From an uncultured virus (IMG/VR IMGVR_UViG_3300050030_000093) (taxonomy: Duplodnaviria > Heunggongvirae > Uroviricota > Caudoviricetes): a DNA stretch of 64,000 bases. The stretch lies in the IMG/VR virus record IMGVR_UViG_3300050030_000093; one strand, 5' to 3'. Numbering within the stretch: position 1 is the stretch's first letter; the number at the start of each line of letters is the position of its first letter. The position numbers and the translations under genes are program-made. Below are positions 46,644 to 64,000 of the stretch, one piece after another. The notes below the pieces were generated by a model, which saw only the letters and a program-made list of their open reading frames with translations, ran no database searches and was not told where the DNA came from.

Positions 46644-46761
46644 GATAATGTTTATTTAAGATTAATTTAATTTATTTTGTGTAAACAAATTTGTTTATAT
46701 TACATAGTTTGCGTTACGCATTTTATGAAATCTTGATATCACAATTTGTGATATCAAATTA

Positions 46762-46797
46762 TTATGGCGGTCTGATGTCTATCTATAAATGTTTCAT
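46762..46797 (-). promoter_or_regulatory. putative uORF MKHL(amber)IDIRPP
   Basis: ATG AAA CAT TTA TAG ATA GAC ATC AGA CCG CCA TAA TAA followed by a 12-bp inverted repeat. Confidence 0.5.
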
Positions 46798-47577: not shown

Positions 47578-47646
47578 AATTACAAATTTAATATAAATAC
47601 TTGAATTGCGAAAATAAATACTTCATTTATAAATTTAATTGCGACT

Positions 47647-48006
47647 TTAATTTTTAATTGCGACTTTAACTTCTTCAAGTGCTAAGTCTAAATTCTGCGT
47701 AATTTTACGCATTTCGGGCGTACCATAATAGCAAATACTGGTCAACTGGTTGTCAATGTCGGGTTCTGTGAATGCAACAACATTAGCACCATTGTCCTGT
47801 AATTTGTAAAATAGTCTTTGAAGTCTTTCTTCGTTATCAATCGATAACGAAATGAGATAATTTGAATCTCTTTTCCACTCTTGAAATTCTGAGGGAAAAT
47901 GCTGAATGAATTCAGCAATTGCGTGCCCAGATTGAACTAATTGTTGTCCAGCACTCAAATCTTGTCGAACAACAGTAACTAATTTTATTATCTACTTATC
48001 TTTCAT
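47647..48006 (-). CDS. pth2: peptidyl-tRNA hydrolase, Pth2 type, with in-frame TAG at codon 5
   Basis: MKDK*IIKLVTVVRQDLSAGQQLVQSGHA..F.EPD....T; ATG overlaps the upstream TGA. Confidence 0.8.
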
Positions 48007-48707
48007 ATTAAAAAATTTAATTTGTTTTCAATATTTTCATTATACCTTATTCTTATTAATTGTATTAAATTTTCATCACAATATTTATTTTTTATATTAT
48101 CTCTTCTTTGAATATTATTAAATTCTTCAGTTCCACCAAAAGCATGATTTGGCTTAAAATGTTGAATGCCATCAAATTCAATCATAATATTTAAATTAGG
48201 TAAATAAAAATCAAATTTTAATTTACCAATATCTTTACAATTATTAAACATTTTATTTCGAATATATGTTATTCGATTTTTATTCAAAAAAGATTTTATT
48301 TTTAATTCACCCTTTGAATCGTTACAAATTGGACATCCAATACCTCTCATGTGGTGAGCAGGTGCTTGTTCAAAAACACCATGTATTGGGCATATTATAT
48401 CGACATGAGTTTTATTGTTAAAATAATTGACCAAGGAATAATCATATTTATTACTATGTGTTTTATTCGAAATAATAATAAATTCGGTTTGGGAAAGTTT
48501 CAATTTATTTGCTTTATATTCGATAGCACATTTCGGACATCCAGATTTTCTAAGGATATGATTTTTTGGAGTTTGTTCAAAAACATTATGTTTTGAACAA
48601 ATTATTCTAATTTTTGTTGAAACGTTCTTGTAATTGACTAATGAATAGTTGTATTTTTCGCCATGAATTTTTTTGGCTTCTTTAATGAAGGACTCAGTAT
48701 CGTACAT
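48003..48707 (-). CDS. endonuclease with C..HG zinc repeats and Vsr/DUF559-like domain
   Basis: IICPIHGVFEQ..H..G.GCP.C; SKGE..FDFYLP..IEFDGIQH. Confidence 0.8.
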   Translation of the reverse strand: MYDTESFIKEAKKIHGEKYNYSLVNYKNVSTKIRIICSKHNVFEQTPKNHILRKSGCPKCAIEYKANKLKLSQTEFIIISNKTHSNKYDYSLVNYFNNKTHVDIICPIHGVFEQAPAHHMRGIGCPICNDSKGELKIKSFLNKNRITYIRNKMFNNCKDIGKLKFDFYLPNLNIMIEFDGIQHFKPNHAFGGTEEFNNIQRRDNIKNKYCDENLIQLIRIRYNENIENKLNFLI

Positions 48708-48859
48708 AATGCTTTTATTTACTATAAATACTAAGTTAGTTACGAATTGATAACCTATTTTTTCATTTTTGTTAACCTACTTCATTGTTTTAAATTTAAT
48801 TGTTAATAATACTCTGCGGTATATAAATACTTAGAGAGTTCAAAATTACTACAATTATT

Positions 48860-49189
48860 TTAATTTCCTAATAAATTATCAATTTCTTTTTTGTCTTGTT
48901 TTTTTATTCTTGCCCTTGCCTGTGATGTTATGTAATCTCTTTCTGCCCGTACTTGTTTTCTTTTTGCCCTGACAGTCTTTGCATTATGCCAATGTGAACC
49001 ATCTGAACAATACATGTTATCGAATCCCTCTTGACTAATATCATTATCAGGTTGGTGCACTAATACTTCATTCCTGCCTGCAATTTTATTTGCATCATGA
49101 ATAAAAGGAGTTAATTTTCTCTGAGGCTTATGTCCATATAGACCAAAACCCCTTCTGTTGCTTTTCAAATCTTTTTTAGTTCTACTCAT
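48860..49189 (-). CDS. basic hypothetical protein
   Basis: MSRT start, R/K-rich. Confidence 0.65.
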   Translation of the reverse strand: MSRTKKDLKSNRRGFGLYGHKPQRKLTPFIHDANKIAGRNEVLVHQPDNDISQEGFDNMYCSDGSHWHNAKTVRAKRKQVRAERDYITSQARARIKKQDKKEIDNLLGN

Positions 49190-49339
49190 TAATTAACTTT
49201 TAGAATGTGTATCACTTTTATGTCCTCTATCTGCATATGCAGGACAAAATTTTGGATTGCATGATGATAATAACATCATTGTCAAAACAAATAAAATTAT
49301 AAAAATCAATTTAATTTTTTTCATATTCATAAATTTTTG

Positions 49340-49411
49340 AGGGCATAACGGGACTCGAACCCGTGGCAATTGGTTTTAGAGACCAATGTTCTACCTCTGA
49401 ACTATATGCCC
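49340..49411 (-). tRNA. amber suppressor tRNA (anticodon CUA)
   Basis: Full cloverleaf; anticodon arm TTGGT-CTCTAAA-ACCAA. Confidence 0.9.
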
Positions 49412-49616
49412 GTATTTAACAAAATATTTTTTTATTTGCCTTCAATTCTTCTAATTTTTCCTTATTTTCTCTTAAATATATTTCTTCATCTGTCAAATGA
49501 AATCCATCCTTACCTGATTTTCTGCGTTTCAAATACCTGCCATAACTGCCTTGTCGGACCAAACAGAGAATTTTTTCTCCCGTGTTTTCATCATATAAAT
49601 AGCCAAGTCCTTGCAT

Positions 49617-50463
49617 TTACTTTCTTGCATCAATTAATTTCTCCCAATATTGTGGTTTTAATTCATTTGCATCAAATGGCATATTATTCTCTGCATGAAA
49701 CCATTGCAGGTGTACATGACTGTAATAACATTCACCTTTATCGGTAGTTACTGTTTGTAATTCTAACGGTAATTCTTTTCTGACATCAACTTTAACAATT
49801 GCTTTCATATCATTTATGTATATAATCATTTCTTCAATGGCTGATTTCAAATCACCATAATGATGCAAGTGATATTTTTTTGCTATTTCAGTAAATTTTT
49901 CTTTTATACTAATCATCTTCAAGTTTGTATATTTTTTTCCTTATAATAGCATAGTTGGTAAAACATAAATACATTGTCTTGAATTCCTGTCCTTCCTTTG
50001 CTACTTGATATATGTACTTCTCTCCCTTTGTAATTACTCTTTGTAATTCATTTACATCAATTCCCCATTCTTCTCTCTCATCTTCAGTACTATTTTTTAA
50101 TATATATTCATACCCATCACAAAATCTATCAAACTCACTGACAGGGTATGTTCGCTTAAGTAGTTCAAAGTCCTGCATCTAATTGTGATTGAACAGAGTC
50201 TCAGCAAGAATAGAAGTAACACCACCGTTACCGTGAAGGTTACAGTCGAGTTTTAATGTACAAATATCATCAAGATATTTTCCAAGTTCTTCTTGGGTTT
50301 CAGCTTTGCTCCAGATTTTTCCTTCGTCTACTGTGACGTTGCCAAGATTAATTGACAGACCGTCTTCATCAGTTTTTCTGATTATCTGACCAATAAAGGT
50401 TCTATTCCAGTCTGCTTTGACCATGAATAGTTCGGTGATTTCTATTGTCGGTAACTTTTTCAT
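49617..50463 (-). other. Hypothetical CDS: 49617-49922, 49909-50178, 50179-50463
   Basis: Coupled ORFs behind ECF-type promoter at 50469-50498. Confidence 0.7.
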
Positions 50464-50530
50464 AATAGTTATACGTAAATACTAATAAAAATGTTACAGA
50501 AAAAGTCAAATTTTTTGACTTGCTGGTTTT

Positions 50531-50950
50531 CTATAATATGTGCCACACTTTGCTTAAATCTAAATAATTGTCAGCAAGATGTATTCCGGGTTGACTTAGT
50601 TTTGTCTCACTAACTCTTAAACTCATTGCCCTTTTACCCAATAATTCAAGTGTTGTGACATAATATATTTTATCGGTATTGGGACAATAAATTGCCCAAA
50701 TATCTGTCTTAGATAGGTCAACAGGTACTTTTTTACCGTTTACAACACTTGATGTTACGATTTGTAATACACCTGTTTTATTTACGGTAATATATTTAAT
50801 CTGTACCCTTTGAATTTTCATATTCTTATCTGCGATAATCAAATCGACATGTGTTCTATCTGAGAACGGCAAAAACACAAAAAATCCTTTTCTGACAACA
50901 TCTGCAATCACAGCAGCCAAACCGATATCTCCCTTTTCATTAGTATTCAT
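50531..50950 (-). CDS. PD-(D/E)XK homing-type endonuclease
   Basis: KGDIG....G..V.LP.....DLI.....RVQIKY. Confidence 0.75.
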   Translation of the reverse strand: MNTNEKGDIGLAAVIADVVRKGFFVFLPFSDRTHVDLIIADKNMKIQRVQIKYITVNKTGVLQIVTSSVVNGKKVPVDLSKTDIWAIYCPNTDKIYYVTTLELLGKRAMSLRVSETKLSQPGIHLADNYLDLSKVWHIL

Positions 50951-51015
50951 AACAATATTTTATTATAAATACTTTAATATTTAAGAAAGGGTTGACTCAA
51001 CTCATGATTTGTTTG

Positions 51016-51104
51016 CGGAGAGGATAGGATTCGAACCTACGGGGCAATTTTAGTCGCCCAACAACTTAGCAGGTTGCCCTTTTCGACCACTCAAGCACCT
51101 CTCC
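51016..51104 (-). tRNA. tRNA-Ser(GCT)
   Basis: Cloverleaf with long variable arm; loop CTGCTAA. Confidence 0.9.
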
Positions 51105-51265
51105 TTGCTATATTAAAGTCATTACTAATTTCAATTGATATTTTTCGCCTTCCTCTGTTTCTAACATTTGAACAGGAATTACGGCTTCTTCTGCAAATTC
51201 AATTCTGCCATCATACACTAATTCTTCTGCTAATTGAAGCAAATTTCCGATATCCAGTTTTGTTT

Positions 51266-52337
51266 TCATGATTTCAATTCTCCAAATTCTTTTTTTATTT
51301 CGGGATTTGCTTCAATAAACGCTTCTGAGCATTCACTGAGATACCAAGGATATAATTTTTCTTTGGCAACGCCTCTGGCTGCACTTCTGCAGTCTCTCCA
51401 ACGGTCACCTTTTATAAGGTCAAGAATTATGCCTTCCAATTGCTTGGCATTGGCTTCTGCATTTATTTCACCGAACATTCCCATATCTGTCGTCTTTAAT
51501 TGTATTATATTCAGTTTCTCTTGTCATTATTTGATTAAAGCAATTATCACATAAATATGTTGTTAAATTATGACTGTTTTCAAATGCTTGATGCTCTTCT
51601 GATTGAAGTTCTTTGTCCCAAATATTTTCTTCGCCTATTTTATGTGAAGCAAGATTTTGGCAACCAACTTTCATGCATTTTACTCCTTTACATGTTAACG
51701 GCAATTTGGGTTTAATTGTATTGCTCATTGCTTTTTATGTTTTAAAATTACTACACTACTAATTTTATATGCAAGAATTGCTTCTTGGTCATAATGCACT
51801 AAAGTAAAATCAACAATTTTATTGATTTGCTCTTTGGTACAGATAATTCTACAAGGAATCATTCTGTCAACATATAACTGACCGTGTGGACTTACCCACT
51901 GACCTTTGGCAGTCTTCATGACGGTTACTCCACCTGTAAGGTCTTTGACAAATGCATCCCATGCCTTATGATGCTCATAAGTGAACTCCTTGTCATTGTT
52001 GCCGGAAGCTGGAACCAATATTTTCCACAATTCAGTTTTCATATTGTTCTTCTTTTAAAACGTTTGGTAATGACTTCTTTCTTTTGGTTTCAACTAATCT
52101 GAAATAATCATCATAAAATACGTTATATCCAAGTTTCAAGCATAATGTTAAACCTTCTCCCTTATAATTTTTAATGTGAATCTCTCTGGAATCGCTGATA
52201 ACTGTATAAATACCATTGTATTGAAAGTAATCACTACCTCTCTTACATTCAAGTTTAATCAAGTCGCCCTTTTTAACTTTGTGAGGGTCACTTGCCTTTT
52301 TATACAACTTTTGTTGATATTTTATGATTCCTTTCAT
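51266..52337 (-). other. Hypothetical CDS: 51266-51484, 51468-51728, 51725-52042, 52032-52337
   Basis: Overlapping ORFs downstream of rplL. Confidence 0.7.
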
Positions 52338-52339
52338 AA

Positions 52340-52717
52340 TTATTTTATTTCAACTACTGCACCCACATTTTCCAGTTCGGTTTTAAGTATCAATGCATCG
52401 GTTTTTGATACTTTTCCTGTCAGAAGACCCGGACATTTATCGACCAGTTCTTTTGATTCTTTGAGTCCCAATCTCAAGCATTCATTAACTTTTTTGATGA
52501 CATGTAATTTTTGTCCACCAATTTCTTTCAGATAAACATCAAATTCAGTCTGTTCTTTTACTGCAACTTCGGGTGTTGGTACACCAATCGGAGTTACAAT
52601 GCTCTGACCCTTGATGCCATAATCATTTTCAAGAATATCAATGAGTTGTTTTGCTTCTAACACCGTCAATTTTGTCAATGTGTCAGCAATTGCGAATAAT
52701 TTTGGATTTGTTGCCAT
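52340..52717 (-). CDS. rplL: 50S ribosomal protein L7/L12
   Basis: LTVLEAKQL..L...YGI; EQTEFDV.L...G.QK..VIK.V.....GLKESKELVD..K..LE..GA.VEIK. Confidence 0.92.
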   Translation of the reverse strand: MATNPKLFAIADTLTKLTVLEAKQLIDILENDYGIKGQSIVTPIGVPTPEVAVKEQTEFDVYLKEIGGQKLHVIKKVNECLRLGLKESKELVDKCPGLLTGKVSKTDALILKTELENVGAVVEIK

Positions 52718-52784
52718 TATTTCTATTATTAATTATTATGCAATTATACGTAAAATTTCTGAAAATGTTACAGTAAAAGTAAAA

Positions 52785-53078
52785 AATAACATGAGCGTAG
52801 CCAGAATTCTGTTGTTAATCATCATTTATCTAAGCACCAACCCGACTATCACAGAGTTGCTTTCCCTCTAAGTCTGTATGGCTTGCACCCCACACTACAA
52901 GTAGTGCTTCTAATCTCTGCGGTAGTAACGATTTTAAACAGTTGGTACTCTGATGCTTCATTTCTCAACCTAATCTTCCGCATTTAGCAAAGGTGTTCTG
53001 AACTTCCTCTATCCGGACATTTATCTGGACAAAATGTCCTGATTAGTGTCCGGATAGCGATGAATCCTCGGTGTTATT
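52785..53078 (-). ncRNA. rnpB: RNase P RNA (compact)
   Basis: P1 AATAACA/TGTTATT; GAGGAAGTTCAG (CR-I), GGTGCAAG, AGATAAATG (CR-IV), AACAGAATTCTGGCTA (CR-V). Confidence 0.85.
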
Positions 53079-53173
53079 TTTTACTGTTGTCCGGATTATT
53101 GTCCGGATTTCGCCAGATTGTCGAGATTCTGGCGAGATTGTGATGGGGGTAGGTCTATGCCATGTTCATCACA

Positions 53174-53897
53174 TTATGATTTCTCTTGTTGTTTTAATAA
53201 ATCAGAAATTCCATTCCAAAATTTAACATCTGCTTCACTACCAAGTGTGGGTAATATAACATAGTCAATCATCCTAATTGCCGAATATCTTGTTATCCAA
53301 TTCGTATTACTTAAAGATTTTACAATTTTTTCTTGTACTTCCTCAAATGTAGGTATTGGAAATTTTATTATTTTTTCATCCAATGGTGCTTCACCCGATG
53401 TATTATCTTCACATCCTTTAGGGGATTCCAAAATAAATTCAGTATATCCCAAGTCTTTTGCTTCTTTGAGATAAAGTTTTGCTGTTTGGATATTTGTTAT
53501 GGCAATTGATAACAATCGTTTGGAGTTATCGTTGTCGGTCTGTTCTTTTGCTGCTCCAAGAATACTCATTTGTTTGTCGAGAGCATTTATTGATGTTTGA
53601 ATAGATTCTTTCATTGTTTTATTGTATTTTTACGAGTTCATTTACTGACCTTTGAATTTGTGCAATATGAAGGTCAATCACACGAGGTTTATTGTCTTCG
53701 TCAATGAATTTTATTTCGGCATCTTTTCCAACTTGATACTCATTTAACGTGAAATTCACAACCTCTGTTTTAAATGCCAGATGTTTATCGAGATATTCTT
53801 GCAATGTTGTTTGTGAAATCCACATAAATTCTGTTTCACATAAATTTTCAACAACTAATTTAATTAGTTTTCCTTTAAAAGATTTTTTGCTTTTCAT
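53174..53897 (-). other. Hypothetical CDS: 53174-53614, 53619-53897
   Basis: Adjacent ORFs. Confidence 0.7.
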
Positions 53898-53935
53898 GAT
53901 TTATAAATTTTGTTGTAAATATCGCACTAAATTCC

Positions 53936-54613
53936 TTAATATGCAAGAGATTTTCTTTTTTCTCTTCTCTTGGTTCTACCATTGCCTTTGTTCAGTGCAC
54001 CAAATGTTGGAGTCAATGAATGATGATTGGGACACAACAATTCCAAATTATTTAAGTTATGATTCTCAGAATTACCGTCCTTATGCTCCAGTTGAATTGG
54101 CACTAAACCCGTAGTCGGATTTACTTCATTCCAGCCACACTTCATACACTTGTTACCGTGCTTATGTATGAGGTACTTTTTATACATGGTAGCGGGAAAT
54201 AACACATTCCCATTTTCAATTTTCTTAAAATTTTCTTGTTGAAAATATTCGCCACTACATTTGGGGGAACAAAATTTTGTTTGACGTGAATTTAATGGCT
54301 GACCGCAATGTAAACAATTTTTCAGTTTGTTTATGTTGGCTCGTTTGGGGTATTTTCTATTGTTATATTCTGCACCGCATGACTGTGAACAAAATCTTCT
54401 GTTTTTACTTATTAACGATGTGAATACATTACTGCAGTTAAGACACGCTTTGGTTTCTTTGGTCTCAGCATAATTTTGGTGATACCCAAGTTTATTTAAT
54501 TTTATCTGAACACACCTAAAATTTCTACCTAATACATTGGCAATTTCTTGAAATCCCTTTCCTTCCTTATGAAGTGCAATTGCTTTTTCAACGTCCTCTT
54601 TATTCCATTTCAT
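53936..54613 (-). CDS. HNH endonuclease
   Basis: C..CGW..QLEHKDGN..N....NLELLCPNHH. Confidence 0.9.
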   Translation of the reverse strand: MKWNKEDVEKAIALHKEGKGFQEIANVLGRNFRCVQIKLNKLGYHQNYAETKETKACLNCSNVFTSLISKNRRFCSQSCGAEYNNRKYPKRANINKLKNCLHCGQPLNSRQTKFCSPKCSGEYFQQENFKKIENGNVLFPATMYKKYLIHKHGNKCMKCGWNEVNPTTGLVPIQLEHKDGNSENHNLNNLELLCPNHHSLTPTFGALNKGNGRTKRREKRKSLAY

Positions 54614-54671
54614 AATATTTACTTTAATATAAATACTATGAAATGCGAAAAAAGATTTTCGAACTTAGTAG

Positions 54672-54742
54672 AGCAGGTGAAGGGAATCGAACCCTCGTCC
54701 TCGGCTCGGCAAGCCAATGCACTACCCCTATGCTACACCTGC
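54672..54742 (-). tRNA. tRNA-Gly(GCC)
   Basis: Cloverleaf; loop TTGCCGA. Confidence 0.9.
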
Positions 54743-54752
54743 GATGTTATTG

Positions 54753-54826
54753 CACACCGAATGGGATTCGAACCACATATCGTACCCCTGAGACGGGGCA
54801 ATTCTTTCCAGTTAAACTACCGGTGC
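54753..54826 (-). tRNA. atypical or degenerate tRNA, probably Glu(CTC)
   Basis: Cloverleaf, but anticodon loop is 6 or 8 nt (GTCTCA) and T-stem is bulged. Confidence 0.55.
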
Positions 54827-54857
54827 ATGTTGCAGGGTCTTCCCCTGCAATTTTTCT

Positions 54858-55106
54858 TTAAGGCATAAGCCTAAAAGTACTCAACTTATTTTTAAGTCCA
54901 ACGTCTGCAGTCCAGTACCTGTAACCATCAGCCTTTTCATAGGCATCAAATTTTGTCATACCGCTAACGTAAAACTTTTGGATTTCACCATCCGTAGACG
55001 TGATTTCCACAAGCCAAAGTCTCATAATTTTCGGATGCTTTCTGTAGAATGCATCGTCTTTCACGAGTTCTGGCTGTTCCTGCTTTTTTGTTTGTCTAAA
55101 TAACAT
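54858..55106 (-). CDS. hypothetical protein
   Basis: 82-aa ORF. Confidence 0.55.
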   Translation of the reverse strand: MLFRQTKKQEQPELVKDDAFYRKHPKIMRLWLVEITSTDGEIQKFYVSGMTKFDAYEKADGYRYWTADVGLKNKLSTFRLMP

Positions 55107-55170
55107 ACCAATCGCATAATCAATAGCAGGATTGATTTACGATGTGTTGAGATACTTCATAATTATCATT

Positions 55171-55845
55171 TTAAATTATTTTATCCAATATATTTGTTTT
55201 ATGATATAAATTTATCCACCTTCTAATTGCAGTGTCACTAACATTATATTTTTTACCGATTGCACGATATGACATTGTTTTTAACATTCCGTTTAGTTCA
55301 TCCAATGATGGTCGCTCTTTAACTTTTCTTTGACTTAATCTTGGTGGACTTATTCTTATCTTTTTTACTTTAATTGGTTTCGGTGATAATGCGGATGCTC
55401 CTTTACAATGTGTTTCCAGTGTTGCATTACAATTTGGACATAAGAACCTCAAATTTTCCAGATGATTATCATTGTTAACACCATTTATATGGTCAAGAAT
55501 TAATGAAATTTTTTTACCATGCCAATTTTCATCTTGACCACAAAACTTACATTTATATTCAATTAAATTTTCAGCAATTATTCTGTCTTTTATCGTTTTT
55601 CTTCCAACATCATTTATACTAAAAATTTCTTCATTGCTTTTTCTCGAATAAATTCCTTGATTTGCTATCATTAACTCACTTCTGTTTAAAAAATGTGAAG
55701 TATCAATCTTCCATTCATTTAAACGTCTATGTAGTGTCTTATATGATGCACCTGATTCATTTCTTTCAAATTTATGTAAAACATCCCTATACGTATTACA
55801 TTCCGCTACAATTTGACGTAATTCATTTTCGTTATATTCAATCAT
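55171..55845 (-). CDS. HNH endonuclease with C-terminal HTH
   Basis: CKFCG..LDHINGVNNDN.LENLRFLCPNC; SYRAIGKKYNVSDTAIRRW. Confidence 0.9.
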   Translation of the reverse strand: MIEYNENELRQIVAECNTYRDVLHKFERNESGASYKTLHRRLNEWKIDTSHFLNRSELMIANQGIYSRKSNEEIFSINDVGRKTIKDRIIAENLIEYKCKFCGQDENWHGKKISLILDHINGVNNDNHLENLRFLCPNCNATLETHCKGASALSPKPIKVKKIRISPPRLSQRKVKERPSLDELNGMLKTMSYRAIGKKYNVSDTAIRRWINLYHKTNILDKII

Positions 55846-55887
55846 CGTTTCAAACCTTTAATATAAATACGTTTGAGTTTTGTTTTG

Positions 55888-55962
55888 TACACCCGGTGAG
55901 ATTCGAACTCACAACCTTTGGTTTCGTAGACCAATGCACTAATCCAATTATGCTACGGGTGC
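55888..55962 (-). tRNA. tRNA-Arg(ACG)
   Basis: Loop CTACGAA. Confidence 0.92.
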
Positions 55963-56105
55963 ATTTATTGTACCACAATAGTTCCGGTACATAATAAAAT
56001 AAAAAATATGATTTCACCAAAAAGAATCGTCAATCCAAATAGCAATGCTTGCCTTGTCGGACGACACGTAAAATAATCAATCAGTTTTTTCATTTCATTT
56101 TATTT

Positions 56106-56384
56106 TTAACACCAAACTATTTTGTTATTCACTATAAAATAATGTGCATGATATGGGTCTTGACCAGTGAAATTACCAATTGACGGAGAAAATGAAACCG
56201 TACCATCGGGATTTTCAATTAATGTCCAACCGTCTTTCCAATTGGGTTTAAAGTTCATAACTGTTTTTTCACCACAACCACACGCACAAAGATGTACTGC
56301 AACACAATATTTTTTTGTAATAAATACTTTTCCTTCTTCAATTTCAATTGGAATAGTATCAACAAATATAGGTATTAATTCCAT
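56106..56384 (-). CDS. DUF6527-like protein
   Basis: HLCACGCGE..W.L.....VSFSPSIGN....HAHYFI; start MELIP. Confidence 0.65.
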   Translation of the reverse strand: MELIPIFVDTIPIEIEEGKVFITKKYCVAVHLCACGCGEKTVMNFKPNWKDGWTLIENPDGTVSFSPSIGNFTGQDPYHAHYFIVNNKIVWC

Positions 56385-56438
56385 TGTTTTCACATTACTT
56401 TTTATTATACTATAAACCCTAATACTTAAGGTTTTTTG

Positions 56439-56513
56439 TACCCCTGGAGGGACTCGAACCCCCATAAGACCTTGTTTCGAAGACAAGCGCATTATCCGTT
56501 ATGCTACAAAGGC
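56439..56513 (-). tRNA. tRNA-Arg(TCG)
   Basis: Loop CTTCGAA. Confidence 0.9.
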
Positions 56514-56936
56514 ATTATTCTATATTTTATGTGCAGTACGTCACCGTCTTCTGTTAAATACTTAGACATTCCGTCTCTGCGACCTTCACCGTAAACAATT
56601 ATTATACAACAGCCACTTTCATCTATAAATGCATATCCGGTTTGTGAAACAAAAGTCTTTCCATCAGTATATTCAAGTTTATTCTTGAGTTTCTCTATCG
56701 TGAATTTCATTAGTTCGTTTTTTATAACGTGATACAGCTTTTTTCAATGCTTCATTGGGTTCAGAAGGATTTAATAATTCATTAAAGAAAATGTCATAAT
56801 CTTGATTTGTTGGTATGTATATTACTTCGTCACAACACAAGACAAAATCTTTTTCCAATTGCACTGAACTGTCAGGTGCATAAATTACTTTTCCACATTT
56901 AGGACAAATCGCTGTTGCCATATCAATTGTTTTTAG

Positions 56937-57026
56937 TGCACAGAGGTGGGACTCGAACCCACATATCACATTAGTGATACCAGTTTAGGAAACTGGGACG
57001 GTCATCCAATTACGTTTTACTTGTGC
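56937..57026 (-). tRNA. atypical tRNA-Arg(CCT) with long variable arm
   Basis: CCAGT-TTCCTAA-ACTGG; V-arm TATCAC-TAAT-GTGATA; 5' end overlaps HNH stop codon. Confidence 0.7.
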
Positions 57027-57634
57027 TTTTTTCTTCCAAAATATTCGGACCTTCCATTAGTTGCATTTTTATTTCTACTTCCAAAATTTTTTGTTAATGA
57101 ATGACAGTTTGGACATAAAAGTTCAATATTTTCTTCTTTATTATTTAATGAATTTCCATCAACATGATGATGTTGAAGTGGAATTTTATTACTGTGTTCA
57201 TTTTTTTCTCCCCAGCCACACTTTTGACATTTATTATTAAATTTTTCAAAGAAATATTTTTTTATGTGATTTGACATTGAAAATTTCCCGATGATTCCGC
57301 TTTCTTTACCATTTTTCCATCTTTCAATATATTGTCGATATTCATATTCGCAATGACATTTATTGGAGCAAAATTCACTATCTCTTTCAGGATACATGAT
57401 AATTTCAACACAACAATTTTTACATATACCCCTTTTATATTCAATAAATGCTTTCCCCTTATTAAATGTTTCATTGGGATTAATATCACGTCTTCTCGGT
57501 AATGAAATTCCAAATCTTAGTGCTGCTTTTTTTATTGCACCACCAGTAACACCAAATATTTTTCCAATTTCTGAATAACTTTTATTTTCGTAAATTATTA
57601 ACTTTTCAAGTTCTTTTTCATTATAAGTATTCAT
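57017..57634 (-). CDS. HNH endonuclease
   Basis: CQKCGW..HHVDGN..NN...NIELLCPNCH. Confidence 0.9.
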   Translation of the reverse strand: MNTYNEKELEKLIIYENKSYSEIGKIFGVTGGAIKKAALRFGISLPRRRDINPNETFNKGKAFIEYKRGICKNCCVEIIMYPERDSEFCSNKCHCEYEYRQYIERWKNGKESGIIGKFSMSNHIKKYFFEKFNNKCQKCGWGEKNEHSNKIPLQHHHVDGNSLNNKEENIELLCPNCHSLTKNFGSRNKNATNGRSEYFGRKKHK

Positions 57635-57700
57635 GGTATTTTTATCATAAATACTTCATTATTTATAAAAATCGTATAGACATAAAAAATAATGTATTTA

Positions 57701-57725
57701 ATTCTATCCATTAAACTATAAGAGC
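57701..57725 (-). pseudogene. orphan tRNA 5' fragment (acceptor strand and D-arm)
   Basis: GCTCTTA-TA-GTTT-AATGGATA-GAAT, closely like the 5' end of the neighbouring tRNA-Arg(TCT). Confidence 0.6.
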
Positions 57726-57842
57726 ATAAGTGCAGTTGCAATAACTGCTAATATTAACAACACCAAAGCGAATTTCAATTCATCTTTTCGTTGTTGTTTT
57801 GCCATTTCAGAAAAATAAGGAAACATATTTTAATTTTATTTG

Positions 57843-57914
57843 TACCCCCACGGGGAATCGAACCCCAATTTGTTGCTTAGAAGGCATCCGTTCTATCCGT
57901 TGAACTATGGAGGC
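57843..57914 (-). tRNA. tRNA-Arg(TCT)
   Basis: Loop CTTCTAA. Confidence 0.88.
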
Positions 57915-58152
57915 AGGTTTATTTCTTTTTAAATTGGTCAACAATGTTTTCAATTACTGGCTTGTTTTTATCTATACGAAGAAAACTGTACCAAATAAAT
58001 ATCGAACAAAGGAAAACAATTATTGTGACAATTGCAACTTTTATGAAGTACGGAGTTAAATCAACATACTCTTTAAATCTTGATTGTAATTTCTTCAAGA
58101 AACGTTCTTCGTGATTTTCACTGGGCAAACTTTCCATAACTATTTGAATTTG

Positions 58153-58237
58153 AGCCGATAGAGGGATTCGAACCCCCGGTGAGTTATTAGCATCTAGTTT
58201 ACAAAACTAGCCTAATCGACCACTATAGGATATCGGC
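58153..58237 (-). tRNA. tRNA-Thr(TGT) with enlarged variable region
   Basis: GCCGATA/TATCGGC acceptor; CTAGT-TTTGTAA-ACTAG. Confidence 0.8.
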
Positions 58238-58475
58238 ATTATTATATGTATATTATTCTTCCACTTCTCATTAAAGTTATTTTTTTCCAAAAATCGAGAT
58301 ATTCATTTGATGTATTTTCAAATTTATTGGGAATAACAAGTATTTCAAAACCTGCACCCCTTAAATTAATTTCATTTTTAATATCTTCTTCTGAAAGGAT
58401 AATCATGGAATATTCTTTATCCCATTTGTTCCATTCAAATATATGAAATCTTTCCATTATTATATCAAAATTTTG

Positions 58476-58548
58476 AGCCAAAAGCAGGAATCGAACCTGC
58501 AACATTCTGAATACGAATCAGATACTCTACCAATTGAGTTATTTCGGC
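58476..58548 (-). tRNA. tRNA-Thr(CGT)
   Basis: Loop TTCGTAT. Confidence 0.88.
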
Positions 58549-58556
58549 ATTTATTT

Positions 58557-58844
58557 TCATAACCAAATTATTTTATTATTTGTAATAAAATAATGTGCAT
58601 GATACGGGTTTTGACCGGACCAATTACCAATTGATGGAGTAAATGATATTGTACCATCAATATTTTCAATTAAATTCCATCCATCTTTCCAATTAGGTTT
58701 TAAATCCATTACTGTTTCTTCCCCACATCCGCAAGCACATAAGTGAATTGCAATGCCAAATTCTTTTGAAATATAACATTTGCCTTCTTCTAGTGGCTTT
58801 TCAATCTTATCAACATAAACAGGTGTTAAATAATCAATTTTCAT
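58557..58844 (-). CDS. DUF6527-like protein, paralog of 56106-56384
   Basis: Near-identical motifs to 56106-56384. Confidence 0.7.
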   Translation of the reverse strand: MKIDYLTPVYVDKIEKPLEEGKCYISKEFGIAIHLCACGCGEETVMDLKPNWKDGWNLIENIDGTISFTPSIGNWSGQNPYHAHYFITNNKIIWL

Positions 58845-59116
58845 TTTATTAATCGACCTTCAAATCGATTATCTTCAATAGTATTATATTCAGTTTCTCT
58901 TTTCATAACAAATTTAAAATGTTCTTCACATAAATAAGTTGTTGCATTATGTGATTCATCAAACTGTTGATGTTTTAAATACTCGTCATTTCCAATACCT
59001 TCATCTCTACACCAAATATTTTCTTCACCAACTTTATGAGAAGCAAGTTCTCTGCAACCAACTATCATGCATTTTACTCCTTTACATGACATAGGTAAAA
59101 ATGGTTTTTTTTTCAT
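58841..59116 (-). CDS. hypothetical protein, paralog of 51468-51728
   Basis: CKGVKCM.VGC..LASHK.GEENIW..SHN.TTYLC..RETEYNTI in both. Confidence 0.75.
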   Translation of the reverse strand: MKKKPFLPMSCKGVKCMIVGCRELASHKVGEENIWCRDEGIGNDEYLKHQQFDESHNATTYLCEEHFKFVMKRETEYNTIEDNRFEGRLIK

Positions 59117-59215
59117 AGTTATTGATATTTAATATGTTATCATCACTTTTGAATGGTAGCATTGTTCGTGCTATTGTGCAAAATCAATGCTATCGTTCAT
59201 ATTACCAATTTGTTG

Positions 59216-59288
59216 CGCCCCAGGTAAGGATTGAACTTACGACCTTTGGTTTAACAGACCACCGCTACTACCACTGAGCTACTGAGGC
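59216..59288 (-). tRNA. tRNA-Asn(GTT)
   Basis: Loop CTGTTAA. Confidence 0.88.
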
Positions 59289-59289
59289 A

Positions 59290-59622
59290 TTAAATTATAT
59301 TTCCTTCAATTTCTTTATGACAATTTGAACATACTAATATACATTTATCTAATTCTTCTTTTACTTTTTCCCAACTTCTTGTATAACCTTTTGCACCAAT
59401 ACCAAATTCTTTATCCCCATTAGTATGGTGAAATTCAAGTGCTCCAACATATTTATTATATCCACACTTTACACATTTTCCACCTTTGTATGCAACTGCT
59501 TTTTCTTTTAATACATGTCTTCTTTTTTGAACAGCATCAACAGCACATTTTTTACATCTTGAACGTCCATCAATACGAATGACATATTCTGTCAAACCAT
59601 GTTTCTTACAAATTTTTTCCAT
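59290..59622 (-). CDS. HNH endonuclease
   Basis: YKGGKCVKCGY..LEFHH..ELDKCILVCSNCH. Confidence 0.88.
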   Translation of the reverse strand: MEKICKKHGLTEYVIRIDGRSRCKKCAVDAVQKRRHVLKEKAVAYKGGKCVKCGYNKYVGALEFHHTNGDKEFGIGAKGYTRSWEKVKEELDKCILVCSNCHKEIEGNII

Positions 59623-59776
59623 ATATTTATTTTTAACATAAATACATGGATTAACAAAATCGGTTAATCACTCAAAGAACTTTTAAAAAGTTTGAAACAC
59701 AGCCGATTTTCTTCTGAATTTCGGTTTAACTACTCCTTTATAACAGTTTCGTACTATGAGCACTGTGTTTCATACG

Positions 59777-59850
59777 TAGCGAAGGTGGGACTTGAACCCA
59801 CAACCTTGACTTTATAAGAGTCCTGCTCTAACCATTGAGACTACATCGCT
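59777..59850 (-). tRNA. tRNA-Ile(TAT), slightly irregular
   Basis: Anticodon loop CTTATAA(A); imperfect anticodon stem. Confidence 0.75.
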
Positions 59851-60115
59851 ATATTACCATTCAATTGTTGCATTACTTACACTTTTTATATCAATTTCGT
59901 ATTCACCTTTAACGTGTCTGAGATTCATTAATGCTGCCCGAACTTCAATAAAAGTTGCATCTTTCGGACAATGAACTAACATCATTCCACTATTATGGTC
60001 TGCTGTTCCCTGACAGTAAGTTGTGTAATCATACTCCAATAAAACATATTTCATTTTCATAATAAAAATTTTCAATAAATATATGAAAAATTTTGCTTTT
60101 GCAAGTATTATTTTG

Positions 60116-60187
60116 TGCGAAATGTCGGATTCGAACCGCTTCCTCTGTTTGGTGGACAGACGCTTTACCAATTAAGCTACACTTCGC
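60116..60187 (-). tRNA. non-canonical tRNA with 8-bp acceptor stem and ACC (Gly) anticodon
   Basis: GCGAAGTG/CATTTCGC; TCTGT-CCACCAA-ACAGA; short T-stem. Confidence 0.65.
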
Positions 60188-60321
60188 ATGGACGGGGCAC
60201 TGCGATAAAACAGTGTATCTTCCCCGATTTAAAAAAGTGTCCCATGTGCATCAAAGGGATTCCGGAGAACAGTCAGGATAGATTAACTGACCTTGCACAC
60301 CCACAGCAGGATGGGACTTTG

Positions 60322-60394
60322 AGCAGAAAACGGGACTCGAACCCGCAACTTTCAGCTTGGAAGGCTGACGCTCTACCAATTGAGTTACTTCTGC
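60322..60394 (-). tRNA. tRNA-Gly(TCC)
   Basis: Loop CTTCCAA. Confidence 0.92.
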
Positions 60395-60482
60395 GTTTTT
60401 GCCAGATTTTTACATGCTCTCACATGGGGTCATTTTCAATCTGGCGACCCATAGGGTGAACACCCTGTTTAGAATGTAGTTG

Positions 60483-60555
60483 TGGAGATTACTGGACTCG
60501 AACCCGTTTCTCATGCTCTTCAGGCACACGCATAGACCATCTCTGCTAAATCTCC
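60483..60555 (-). tRNA. tRNA-Phe(GAA)
   Basis: Loop CTGAAGA. Confidence 0.82.
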
Positions 60556-60658
60556 ATATTTACAGGATTCCTTGTGAGGAAGTTACCCGAATTGCGCCAC
60601 CTGCAACCCGACCTATAAAATTTTGTACTTCCACTTTGTATAGTACGAACTTTTTGCG

Positions 60659-60730
60659 TGGAATGGGAGGGATTTGAACCCCCGACTTTCTGCTCTTCAG
60701 ACAGACACTCTACCACTGAGTTACCAATCC
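60659..60730 (-). tRNA. tRNA-Phe(GAA), second copy
   Basis: Loop CTGAAGA. Confidence 0.85.
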
Positions 60731-60962
60731 GTTTAGTTCTGGTGTAAGCCTTATACTTACGTTTCCCGACAGCATTGCAACTATCTTTAATATGTCTCGG
60801 AGTCTATAATGTACTATTCACATTGCCAAATGCGAGTACAGAACTTCCTACTGAACATTAGGGCAGCTTCTTATGCAACCCAGAACTTTTACACCTAAAT
60901 GACTCCATGAAAATCATTTTGATGCATGAATTAACTGATTTATTCCATTTCAATTAATTTTG

Positions 60963-61049
60963 CGGAGAATGTAGGATTCGAACCTACGGAGCAGGTTTCC
61001 CCGCCCACAGTTTAGCAGACTGTTACAATAACCACTCTGTCAATTCTCC
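60963..61049 (-). tRNA. tRNA-Ser(GCT), second copy
   Basis: Loop CTGCTAA; long V-arm. Confidence 0.9.
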
Positions 61050-61119
61050 AAATATACCCTTTTAACCCTTAGATAATTATAAGCCAAATGTTGATGGGTA
61101 CTTAACACCAAATGCTTTG

Positions 61120-61203
61120 CGGAGAAAGAGGGATTCGAACCCCCGAAGGTTGCCCTTGTCAGTTTTCAGGACTGATGGTTTATAGCCACTCACCCATTTC
61201 TCC
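61120..61203 (-). tRNA. tRNA-Ser(TGA)
   Basis: Loop CCTGAAA (C33); long V-arm. Confidence 0.85.
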
Positions 61204-61266
61204 ATTTGAATTTCTATGATATCCCACCAAAAAAGGGTGCTATGAAATTCTAACTGTCTGTCTGTG

Positions 61267-61340
61267 TTGTCTCGAAGGGACTTGGACCCCCGACCCCTTC
61301 CTTATCAGAGAAGTGCTCTTACCAACTGAGCTACGAGACA
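61267..61340 (-). tRNA. tRNA-Ile(GAT)
   Basis: Loop CTGATAA. Confidence 0.85.
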
Positions 61341-61468
61341 GTGTTAATGTATGTTTTATCATGCATTAACCCCCTTTTTTGGACTTAATGATGGTTATTT
61401 CATACATTATAACGTTAAATACATTTTACATTTTGGTGGGTTTTTGTAAAGCATATTTTACATTATTG

Positions 61469-61544
61469 CGTTTCGGGTAAGAGTCGAACTTACATCTCGC
61501 TGTTTAACGGACAGCCGTTTTAACCATTATTGCACTACCGAAAC
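61469..61544 (-). tRNA. tRNA-Asn(GTT), atypical, overlapping 3' end of endonuclease gene
   Basis: GCTGT-CCGTTAA-ACAGC; weak D-stem. Confidence 0.7.
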
Positions 61545-62321
61545 ATATTTTTCATTCCACTTTTTAATTTTCAATAGAAGTTTGTCTAATGTAATTAAAC
61601 TTTGACATTTCTTTTTATTATTATCAATATGTTGAACTAATTTACAATTTGCAGGATGTTTTAATATATTGAAATCAACATTATTTTTAAATCCATCATA
61701 TACTGAATAGATGTGGTCTTTACTAACACCATTTAAATTATTACCTTTATTACTTGGACTATACCATCCCAATTTTTTTACAAGAGATAAATTAAATTCA
61801 TCGGGATAATCATTAACGTTAATATTAAACTCACATAGTGGGCGATAAAACTTATAATACATAAAACCACAATCGCTACAGATTATTTTATGTTTTAAGA
61901 TTGGTTTATCATTACCACAAAATCTACATTTTCTAATTGAAATTAATGGTCTGTTTTCTCTTAATTTTTTATTTCTCACAATTTTATTTTCTTTCATTTT
62001 AGTGGGAAATTTACTTTTAATTGTATGTCTAATTTTATTTTTTGTTTCTTCACTATGTTTTCTTCTTTTATTATTATATTGTGCTGAACAACTTTGATTA
62101 CAAAACTTTTTTTCATTACTTAATGTTTTATTAATGGATTTACCACAATTTTTACATAAAATAATTTCATGGTGTTGTTTTAAAACTTTAAGTCCCAATC
62201 TAAATGCTCTATTGGTAAGTGTTCTATATGATACATTAAATTCTTTAGCTATTTCATTATAGTCTTTATTTAAGTTTATTAAACTTTTTAATTTATTATC
62301 TAATTCATTATTCCATTTCAT
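61527..62321 (-). CDS. putative homing endonuclease (NUMOD3 plus HNH-like)
   Basis: KHSEETKNKI; SKDHIYSV..G......HPANC.L..H.DN..K. Confidence 0.7.
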   Translation of the reverse strand: MKWNNELDNKLKSLINLNKDYNEIAKEFNVSYRTLTNRAFRLGLKVLKQHHEIILCKNCGKSINKTLSNEKKFCNQSCSAQYNNKRRKHSEETKNKIRHTIKSKFPTKMKENKIVRNKKLRENRPLISIRKCRFCGNDKPILKHKIICSDCGFMYYKFYRPLCEFNINVNDYPDEFNLSLVKKLGWYSPSNKGNNLNGVSKDHIYSVYDGFKNNVDFNILKHPANCKLVQHIDNNKKKCQSLITLDKLLLKIKKWNEKYVSVVQ

Positions 62322-62379
62322 TTTTTTATTTTTATATAAATACTTTAAAAACGAGTAAAAAATAGGACTTGAACCTTCG

Positions 62380-62450
62380 AGCCACCCAAGCGAATCGAAC
62401 GCTTCTAATCTGTTTTGCAGACAGATACCTGACCAATCGGACAGGGTGGC
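62380..62450 (-). tRNA. tRNA-Cys(GCA)
   Basis: Loop CTGCAAA; U73. Confidence 0.88.
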
Positions 62451-62548
62451 AAAATTTCCAACATGTCAAAGACCTTCTTACGGAGTTATATAAGGTGCAA
62501 ACCTTATATGTTGTGATTATAAGCCGTAAGACTTATATTTTAAAGAAT

Positions 62549-62580
62549 AAAAAAACCCGAATCTTGCGAATCGGGTTCTT
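62549..62580 (-). terminator. intrinsic terminator (attenuator) upstream of tRNA array
   Basis: AACCCGATTC-GCAA-GATTCGGGTT plus U-tract. Confidence 0.85.
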
Positions 62581-62603
62581 GGTTTATTAAAAACTTTTCA
62601 GTT

Positions 62604-62735
62604 TTATCTCATAAGAAAACCAGAACCCCCATCATCTCCATTATTTCTGCCTGTAAAGTCTGAACAGAATATAGAAATTCCGTTGCGACTTGAGGTCGAT
62701 GTTATAATGGCTGATATGTGCCTGTACGTTTTCAT
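62604..62735 (-). CDS. 43-aa leader peptide MKTYRHISAIITSTSSRNGISIFCSDFTGRNNGDDGGSGFLMR (not in ORF track)
   Basis: Open frame between sigmaA promoter and terminator; 3' codons are complementary to the terminator 5' arm. Confidence 0.7.
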   Translation of the reverse strand: MKTYRHISAIITSTSSRNGISIFCSDFTGRNNGDDGGSGFLMR

Positions 62736-62775
62736 TGTTTATTTATTATAAGTTCGTTTTCTATTAAATACTTGG

Positions 62776-62806
62776 CAAAGTTAAATAAAGTTTCAATACC
62801 ACCAAA
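62776..62806 (-). promoter_or_regulatory. Bacteroidota sigmaA promoter for leader peptide and tRNA array
   Basis: TTTG-N19-TAACTTTG. Confidence 0.75.
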
Positions 62807-62880
62807 CATTTTTTCAATTATTTTCATAAAAAAACCTCAGAAAATTTTCTGAGGTTCTTAAATATTTGAGTATCTGAATT

Positions 62881-64000
62881 TTAGATTTTAACTTCTTTTT
62901 CTGATAAATCGAAAGTAAAGTTAAGAAGTTGTTTGTCAAGGGTTAATTCGAGAGAGTTTTCATCGAATGTTTTGAATTCCTTGAACCATTTTTTGCTCAA
63001 TATCAAAGCGAATTTAATCTGAGCAATTTCTTGCAATGCTTTCCTTCTTACTTTATTCAGTTCGTTGGATTTAGTAATCAGATAGGTTTTCAGCATTTCT
63101 TTCTGTTGTGCTTCTGAAAGAGTTTTGTACAATTCAGACTCTGTTACAGCAAGATATTTTTTAATTGCATCTACCATGACGTACTCGCTGAGTTTCAGAC
63201 TTGCACCGCTTTTTATTTTGGCAACAACGTCTTCAACTTTTGGCAAGCTGCTAAGACTCTTTATTTTAGTTTCAAGATTCACTGACATGTAGAAGTCTGT
63301 TGATTCTTCGGCATCAGTTAAAGGAGCAAAGCCGTTATAGTCGGTAATACCGATTGTTTTCAGCCAATCTGCAGCTTCCTGTCCGAGCAATTCAACAAAT
63401 GATTTACTTTCTTTCGGGAATAATGACTTCCTGTAATAATCGTAAACCTTCTTGTCTGCCTGGGTTTTCAGAAGTTCCCATTCCTGTACAGCCAAATCTT
63501 TTGCAGAAAGTGAACGAACCATACCTCTGTTTATAATAGGCAGAGAATTAAGGTCGACAACAATTATAGCTGAAAAATCTGCACCTGCACTTATTACTGC
63601 AAATGGTACGGAATTCGTTGTCAATAAATCAACAAGTTTGCTTGAATAACTTACTGGAAGTTTTTCAACGTTAACAATACCGTCCTTTATAAGAGTAAAG
63701 GTATTGTACTTGTAAGTAGCAACTTCATTGATTTTGAACTTGTTTTCAGGAAGTATTGCTTTTCCTTCAATACGAATACGAATACTGAGATTTGCACGTT
63801 TTTCATTCCATACCAAATCAGTCATTGAATAACCTCTGTCTGGATTGGTGTTGGTGAATTTAACCTCAACGTTCTTCTGCTTCAATTCTTCTGTGATTTT
63901 GTTGAGTTCTTCCACGTTTTTAGCCTCAGATAATCTCTTCTTGTCGGCTTCGCTAAGATTTTCGCCCCTTGCAACACGTTTCCTACCAATCCTGTTGTAA
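62881..64000 (-). CDS. hypothetical protein, 5' part beyond window
   Basis: Frame appears to stay open to the window edge; hairpin terminator 62830-62857 downstream. Confidence 0.75.
   Translation of the reverse strand, partial: YNRIGRKRVARGENLSEADKKRLSEAKNVEELNKITEELKQKNVEVKFTNTNPDRGYSMTDLVWNEKRANLSIRIRIEGKAILPENKFKINEVATYKYNTFTLIKDGIVNVEKLPVSYSSKLVDLLTTNSVPFAVISAGADFSAIIVVDLNSLPIINRGMVRSLSAKDLAVQEWELLKTQADKKVYDYYRKSLFPKESKSFVELLGQEAADWLKTIGITDYNGFAPLTDAEESTDFYMSVNLETKIKSLSSLPKVEDVVAKIKSGASLKLSEYVMVDAIKKYLAVTESELYKTLSEAQQKEMLKTYLITKSNELNKVRRKALQEIAQIKFALILSKKWFKEFKTFDENSLELTLDKQLLNFTFDLSEKEVKI

Follow-up and report, generated by a model that had tools for sequence, protein, structure and literature searches.

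The enterobacterial thr leader senses Thr and Ile, and the ilvGMEDA leader senses Ile, Leu and Val; in E. coli, pheST (the genes of Phe-tRNA synthetase) is also under leader-peptide attenuation. We describe here a locus of related construction in an uncultured virus of the Caudoviricetes (IMG/VR record IMGVR_UViG_3300050030_000093), namely in a stretch of 64,000 nucleotides which is called the window throughout and to whose minus strand all coordinates refer. Computation finds there a promoter, a short open reading frame (ORF) whose frame is conserved, an intrinsic terminator with a covarying alternative helix, and an adjacent array of tRNA genes; leader and tRNA cluster match in the amino acids that they represent. 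We believe it quite probable that the element is a ribosome-mediated (leader-peptide) transcription attenuator that gates the phage tRNA operon.

Like the thr and ilvGMEDA attenuators, the locus has behind its promoter a short ORF in which codons for several amino acids are enriched, an intrinsic terminator ahead of the genes, and an antiterminator whose formation excludes that terminator; the position of the ribosome would decide between the two structures. Those operons encode biosynthetic enzymes, whereas the phage targets are tRNAs, so that the sensed quantity and the product would be the same kind of molecule. Further differences are that the phage leader would sample up to eight amino acids, has a promoter of the Bacteroidota type, is viral, shows no 1:2 hairpin that we could find, and is matched by none of the leader families in Rfam. 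With pheST it has in common that leader-peptide attenuation would act on genes of the translation apparatus; there, however, the target is a synthetase, a single amino acid is involved and the element is cellular. The T-box likewise reads tRNA status and chooses between antiterminator and terminator upstream of translation-related genes, but it binds tRNA directly and has no ORF, unlike the phage leader with its conserved frame and without a T-box match in Rfam.

A leader peptide at the E. coli tRNA-Phe genes was considered and discarded as a precedent, for no such ORF lies upstream of pheV in strain K-12. We take Bacteroid-trp (RF01692) to be a Trp leader. In the available part of PMC2864571 it appears as a table row only. 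Phage tRNA genes are discussed, as far as the accessible parts of the papers go, as codon compensation and lately as an escape from tRNA-cleaving defences (PMC10264068, PMC11464382, PMC11555353); the control of their expression has hardly been addressed so far. In the literature covered, to which subscription-only papers do not belong, nothing was found that describes a leader peptide ahead of tRNA genes, and the accessible portion of the Lak megaphage paper (PMC6784885) has no occurrence of “leader peptide”.

Leaders and the tRNA clusters that follow them

From 62900 downwards the order is the end of an upstream gene, its own terminator, the promoter, the leader ORF, a second terminator, a conserved box and tRNA-Cys (Table 1). 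The promoter, the ORF of 43 codons, the terminator and the competing pairing had been proposed in an original prediction made from the DNA letters, and all four were confirmed in place. The promoter follows the motif TTTG-N17-23-TAnnTTTG, which we assume to represent the Bacteroidota consensus and which has just four occurrences on the minus strand in 64 kb; it stands 22-78 nt before the ATG in 19 of 20 leaders (those of the window and of five complete relatives). In the window an A/U-rich gap of 40 nt separates the TAACTTTG box from the leader ATG. The terminator of the upstream gene insulates the leader unit against transcription from upstream.

The prediction also held that the leader is made up of the amino acids served by the array, and its count is correct: 33 of 43 residues (33 of 42 without Met1) belong to the set C, F, G, I, N, R, S and T, with a binomial p of 1.8e-6 against the long ORFs of the window. 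The array consists, according to ARAGORN, of tRNAs for Cys, Asn (two), Ile (two), Ser (three), Phe (two), Gly (three), Thr (two) and Arg (three) and of a CUA suppressor, i.e., of exactly the eight amino acids of the leader plus the suppressor; a degenerate Glu tRNA that had been proposed in addition was not found by it. A codon-by-anticodon match, also claimed, turned out to be uninformative, since few codons of these amino acids are left unread by the array and the comparison has no power; ACC is without a strict reader in the window. The cognate codons are codons 3-33 of the leader, the last of them about 12 nt before strand A of the antiterminator. Taken alone, the composition of the window leader is suggestive, being only moderately above chance, and comparison with relatives is needed to decide.

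The window stems from a large phage. A 65-kb fragment (G001) is identical to it over the region, and named phages are matched by BLAST at only about 70%, these being Prevotella Lak phages, within an HNH-like ORF and outside the leader. A search with the upstream gene gave 16 loci, four of which (L007, L008, L011 and L019, with 70-73% protein identity) share the whole layout of upstream gene, promoter, homologous short ORF, terminator and tRNA array. A DNA pattern of the ORF core retrieved 24 stretches, which amount to 22 distinct leader versions, all open and 30-49 codons long; frame, terminator and pairing are kept in these homologues. Every version with enough downstream DNA (21 of 21) has an array behind it whose first gene is Thr(GGT), Thr(UGU) or Cys(GCA); the first tRNA lies 62-207 nt past the stop in 18 of the 21, and at 315, 900 and 1238 nt in the remaining three.

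In an alignment of 20 versions the ATG is invariant, and each of the 76 gap runs within columns 1-125 has a length divisible by three, the count being taken per sequence and arising from few indel events. Past column 125 the tails diverge and MAFFT introduces a one-base gap, each frame remaining open to a stop ahead of the terminator. The core, SRNGxGIFCS..GRN, is well kept in order, beyond composition; part of it (S-R-N-G and I-F/S-C) was fixed by the search pattern, which left free N-G between the halves, S after C, and G-R-N. The N-terminal third keeps a composition rich in Ile, Thr, Ser and Asn while its order varies, as regulatory codon runs do. The C-terminal part varies in order and length too. 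Single-base codon differences number 576 synonymous to 776 non-synonymous.

The five complete relatives (G002-G006, 322-363 kb, 34-65 tRNA matches each) provide the decisive comparison. The tRNA genes of G002 (249256-282981, L044-L046) fall into five clusters, which between them account for all 20 amino acids and hardly overlap; the fifth is the cluster of the window, and its leader is of type 5. Clusters 1, 2 and 4 each have a promoter, a short ORF and a terminator at the head. A rule-based scan (an ORF of 15-70 codons that begins with ATG and ends at most 120 nt upstream of a hairpin plus T5) found homologous leaders in G003, G004, G005 and G006, the Lys/Tyr-rich leader being present in four of the five relatives. 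For all 19 leaders of G002-G006 the cognate unit had the lowest binomial p (5.5e-2 to 1.7e-8), and no off-diagonal combination of leader and unit fell below 0.055. The Lys/Tyr type is the weakest: the p of the G002 leader is 0.055 with its own unit and 0.057 with that of type 5. That leader content should co-vary with array content among relatives had been put forward at the outset, and the 19 leaders bear it out. The sorting has exceptions in G005, where Phe is found in cluster 1 and both Pro and Met occur in cluster 5.

Between the T-run and the first tRNA there are 2-43 nt in 15 of the 20 leaders, the others having 98 (window), 140, 313 and 321 nt. A gap of 2-43 nt leaves no room for a separate promoter, and the tRNAs are hardly reachable except through the terminator. 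A short ORF and a strong terminator also stand directly before both large tRNA clusters of Lak-C1 (MK250029.1, a record without annotation). One of these leaders, 85804-85961 on the plus strand, has 16 of 41 residues in the set H, P, R, C and M (p=6.7e-5), precedes tRNAs for His, Pro, Arg, Arg, Cys and Met, and contains an in-frame copy of the terminator 3' arm.

The terminator and the competing helix

The terminator of the window has the stem AACCCGA / UCGGGUU, with a further stem of 2 bp inside it, a GCAA loop and a tail of U7 (62577-62549), and is separated from the leader ORF by a spacer of 26 nt. A simple terminator scanner found none, the attenuator being missed owing to the loop rule of the scanner. 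A hairpin of the type AACCCG...CGGGTT with a T-run is present in every leader version; RNAalifold retains the terminator, with four pairs that have changes on both sides.

The proposed antiterminator, 12 bp with one bulge, is real. Strands A and B pair with -16.9 kcal/mol and one bulged A, while dinucleotide shuffles of the upstream region give -9.9 +/- 2.1 kcal/mol and only 1 of 200 reaches the observed value. The region was also folded as the prediction had suggested. In the finished RNA (62540-62640) the terminator is the minimum-energy fold, with -24.4 kcal/mol against -19.5 in the antiterminator state; in nascent window RNA that ends ahead of the terminator 3' arm the A:B helix is the minimum-energy fold; and with 62630-62610 blocked the terminator fold is restored.

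The comparison was extended to 34 distinct leaders, i.e., that of the window, those of 14 other type-5 loci and 19 of the five complete relatives; two copies in the IMG/VR contig L029, for which the T5 rule found no terminator, and five loci duplicating G002-G006 stand outside the pairing statistics. When the ORF region is paired optimally with the terminator 5' arm, the upstream strand falls within the ORF or at its end in all 34 leaders, and the duplex energies lie between -9.7 and -20.3 kcal/mol. Relative to dinucleotide shuffles (200 per leader), A:B has a median z of -3.0; eight leaders were never reached by a shuffle, and 17 of 34 were reached at most twice. Leaders pair better with their own terminator arm than with the arms of others (mean duplex energy -14.4 vs -11.1 kcal/mol), and none of 10,000 permutations was as good; this advantage of the cognate pairing holds within type 5 alone (n=20; 0 of 10,000 permutations). 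Duplex permutations were used here rather than column-wise counts of antiterminator pairs, since MAFFT places strand B one column off in some of the rows. Differences in the terminator arm are matched by differences in the in-frame strand, as in the covarying A:B helices GATACGGGTTCT:AGAACCCGTATC, CGAGTCTTT:AAAGACTCG, TGGTTGGGTT:AACCCGGCCA and GATCGGGTC:GACCCGATC. In 26 of the 34 leaders the arm pairs with the ORF end when the nascent RNA is folded to minimum energy, and in 31 of 34 the full-length RNA so folded forms the terminator.

From the stop codon to the hairpin there are 22-39 nt in the 20 leaders of the window and the five relatives. In E. coli, according to the accessible part of PMC4824070, a ribosome represses a terminator only close to the stop, and the terminator has its full strength beyond about 30 bp. 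At the spacing found here, a ribosome at the stop would leave the hairpin itself unmasked.

Proposed mechanism and its alternatives

The original prediction took the locus for an attenuator that samples several codons at once. The frame, the pairing and the cluster match speak for this; that the ORF is translated, that stalling leads to readthrough, that the switch has this polarity and that scarcity of tRNA is the signal is what we infer from them. Transcription would start a few bases past the promoter box, and the leader would be translated while the polymerase advances. If the ribosome ran smoothly to the stop, strand A would be covered and B free, the terminator would form, and transcription would end before tRNA-Cys. 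If it lagged or stalled at codons for Ser, Thr, Ile, Asn, Arg, Gly, Phe or Cys, A would capture B once the latter is made; with no ribosome loaded, the outcome would be the same as with a stall. The A:B helix would take up the terminator 5' arm and the polymerase would read into the array. The unit behind the leader may be roughly 16 kb long, because the hairpin-plus-T5 rule finds no further terminator in the window from 62577 until 46301.

Few usable tRNAs would in this way turn the array on, and enough tRNAs would turn it off. As the array supplies exactly the amino acids that are sampled, the result would be a negative feedback on tRNA supply; as relatives sort their tRNA genes into units with matched leaders, each isotype class would be tuned separately. 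The shortage may come from a mismatch in codon usage, from decay of host tRNAs or from a tRNA-cleaving defence. We presume, with somewhat more than even confidence, that large phages of Bacteroidota, including Lak-C1, run parallel homeostats of this kind, each specific to a class of codons, and top up those tRNAs that are in short supply. If this is true, a leader that reads the codons of its own operon would make the phage tRNA supply self-tuning, the isotype-sorted layout of megaphage tRNA clusters would be explained, and the element would be the first attenuator in which the sensed molecule and the product are the same. Leader-peptide attenuation would reach beyond amino-acid supply to the supply of tRNAs, and would extend to viruses of Bacteroidota; the element itself would be a small sensor, of natural origin, for the speed at which defined classes of codons are decoded, and usable as a part.

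A number of observations weigh against the attenuator, and some of them are drawn on by the alternatives considered below. Three pairings are weak, being reached by 47 of 200 shuffles (type 4 of G002), 45 of 200 (L027) and 28 of 200 (type 4 of G003), and in 8 of the 34 leaders the nascent fold chooses something other than A:B. Three of 200 short ATG ORFs (30-60 codons) of the AT-rich window are as rich in the eight residues as the leader. The Leu/Met cluster lacks its own leader (probably it rides on unit two), a lone tRNA-Tyr in G005 stands behind a hairpin without a leader ORF, and the second leader of Lak-C1 (466520-466365, minus strand), before a mixed array of 18 tRNAs, is not enriched (p=0.48). 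The window has a gap of 98 nt between terminator and tRNA-Cys, and within it a sigma-70-like match (62544-62516); this was not adopted as a promoter, since the relatives have no such space there and the Bacteroidota motif is absent, although for the window it is possible. The promoter motif also matches at 58469 and 58349, inside the array; both matches were set aside as working promoters, as they lie within an ORF and come without leader or terminator.

No conserved protector or pause hairpin (an analogue of the 1:2 hairpin) was established by RNAalifold or by the fold of the window. Within the ORF, RNAalifold gives only small hairpins, situated in the portion that the search pattern had fixed, and the single-sequence fold of the window pairs strand A with the start region. 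An ORF-core hairpin, ATATTCTG...CAGAAATAT, had been spotted by eye and was dropped, as RNAalifold does not pick it. With no protector hairpin found, an untranslated leader should read through, unlike the trp leader.

The expression data are Logan contigs of runs labelled peat metatranscriptomes, which cover small parts of the stretch and give neither ends nor strand. None of the RNA-library contigs that match the stretch lies on the leader ORF, and one contig of depth 2 that is 92% alike extends over 62370-62577, from the terminator to tRNA-Cys, where carry-over of DNA is possible; these two points belong with those above. Around tRNA-Cys, 62198-62431 is covered by RNA-library contigs. A contig of depth 1123 (run X2) spans 62265-62431, i.e., the 3' two-thirds of tRNA-Cys and a 114-nt trailer into the start of the next ORF, and may represent a fragment that is abundant and either unprocessed or stable; a second contig, with no difference from the window, spans 62198-62429. 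No more can be read from the contigs than that RNA libraries contain the tRNA-Cys region.

The architecture and the switch may be as we propose while the signal is a more general one: translation status, amino-acid starvation, host shut-off, or the timing of expression, with the array on early in infection, while ribosomes are not yet loading, and off later. An attenuator would indeed be blind to the difference between a missing and an uncharged tRNA, the default to readthrough of an untranslated leader points the same way, and the unit also holds bL12 and PTH2 genes, which would make it a general translation module. A general signal would, however, need neither four leader types matched to clusters nor units sorted by isotype, and we consider it improbable, though worth keeping in mind. 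The polarity might also be reversed, efficient translation to the stop suppressing the nearby terminator, so that good decoding gives more tRNA and stalling gives termination. Ribosomes can repress terminators near a stop codon, as the accessible part of PMC4824070 has it, and some of the distances here are 22-26 nt; most are 24-39 nt, near or beyond the range in which that repression fades according to the same part of the source. Besides, the reversed switch would leave no role for the conserved, covarying A:B pairing, and a tRNA supply that reinforces itself would hardly make sense as regulation; we give this reading very little credence.

It may be asked whether the leader peptide has a function of its own, with an ordinary terminator behind it, the tRNAs being transcribed from elsewhere or by leaky readthrough and the match in composition being incidental. 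The core kept in order would suit such a peptide, as would the equally rich short ORFs of the window and the sigma-70-like site between terminator and tRNA-Cys. The core is partly fixed by the search pattern, though, and the termini vary in order and length while composition is kept; strand A covaries with the terminator arm; the tRNAs begin 2-43 nt past the T-run in most leaders; and three other leader types match three other clusters, while Pfam and NCBIfam hold no family that matches any of the four leader peptides. A functional peptide thus seems very unlikely to us. Nor do we put much trust in a translation-independent RNA switch, operated by binding of a tRNA, in the manner of a T-box, or of a protein, with the open frame as a by-product; its chances appear slight. 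T-box and protein-dependent attenuators do use a terminator/antiterminator pair, and the column entropy by codon position (0.92 / 1.14 / 1.09) shows no third-position excess. This entropy pattern fits selection on the class of amino acid rather than on a folded peptide, and is not the classical coding signature. Against a switch of that kind stand the invariant ATG, the frame open in 34 of 34 leaders, the gap runs in multiples of three, and a match at the level of amino-acid class across unrelated leader sequences. In Rfam, over 62300-62950, tRNA alone is above threshold and no T-box or other family accounts for the leader among the 31 matches at E up to 10; His_leader scores 17.9 bits (threshold 49), on the neighbouring terminator. 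The leader-peptide attenuator remains the reading that we prefer.

Features of the locus and minor observations

Table 1. Features of the tRNA locus in the window, and tRNA clusters of the relative G002
Feature	Position	Strand	Remarks
Intrinsic terminator of upstream gene	62828..62856	-	hairpin AACCTCAG...CTGAGGTT + T-run, -13.2 kcal/mol; counterpart in relatives
Bacteroidota-type promoter	62776..62806	-	TTTG 62806-62803, 19 nt, TAACTTTG 62783-62776
Leader ORF	62604..62735	-	43 codons + TAA; 33 residues Thr, Arg, Ile, Ser, Asn, Gly, Phe or Cys
Antiterminator strand A (GGGTTCTGGTTT)	62617..62628	-	codons 36-40 of leader
Strand B (AAACCAAGAACCC)	62573..62585	-	pairs with A; includes first 5 nt of terminator 5' arm
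Intrinsic terminator (putative attenuator)	62549..62580	-	hairpin + U7 at 62577-62549; conserved in RNAalifold
Conserved box GGTCTTTGACATGTTGGAA	62456..62474	-	directly 5' of first tRNA; recurs in relatives
tRNA-Cys(GCA), first gene of the array	62379..62450	-	ARAGORN, Rfam
tRNA array, putatively gated	49339..62450	-	19 tRNAs by ARAGORN, small ORFs interspersed
G002 cluster 1			Pro/His/Gln; leader peptide MRNLVHIQPQHQPPQVERGYYV
G002 cluster 2			Asp/Glu/Val/Leu/Ala/Trp; leader peptide MKKMLDILVVLSVAVLLWDDAAEEKLHEVG
G002 cluster 3			Leu/Met; without own leader
G002 cluster 4			Lys/Tyr; leader peptide MFAFGTYYYTKKSYKKQFIGIGNNMSTCER
G002 cluster 5			Thr/Cys/Asn/Ile/Ser/Phe/Gly/Arg + suppressor; cluster of the window, type-5 leader

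The upstream gene encodes at least 372 amino acids (given as 372+) and has its stop at 62881. An ORF of 31 codons (62827-62732), whose stop overlaps the leader ATG, was rejected as a gene and is regarded as spurious, since the conserved promoter lies within it.

The 98 nt that separate attenuator and tRNA-Cys in the window (62451-62548, minus strand) contain two small hairpins and no tRNA, at a place where many relatives have tRNA-Thr(GGT), and close with the conserved box. TC[AT]TTGACAT has a single occurrence on the minus strand of the window. In relatives the box comes after leader terminators or before tRNA-Cys; leaders of types 2 and 5 in G002-G006 have it between the terminator and the first tRNA. 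It may serve antitermination in the manner of boxA, or signal processing of the RNA, the likeness to boxA being our assumption.

Within the putative unit lie, on the minus strand, a bL12 homologue among the tRNAs (52343-52717; Pfam Ribosomal_L12, 4.7e-21) and a peptidyl-tRNA hydrolase of the PTH2 type (47650-48006; 1.7e-7 with TAG read as Gln). ORFs with HNH, NUMOD4 or treble-clef domains, similar to homing endonucleases, are found among the tRNAs at 61527-62321, 57017-57634, 55171-55845, 53936-54613 and 46762-47577 (minus strand). The first of them overlaps tRNA-Asn by 17 nt, and a 47-nt stretch at its start is present again elsewhere in G001.

The CUA suppressor tRNA (49339-49411, minus strand) closes the array, and several ORFs in 46311-50950 stay open only with TAG as a sense codon, which is consistent with TAG recoding; the leader ORF itself has no TAG. 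In L029 the promoter and the first 30 leader codons are duplicated around an inserted gene, the copies being 878 nt apart; one copy is truncated, and the full copy, downstream, has the hairpin with a broken T-run.

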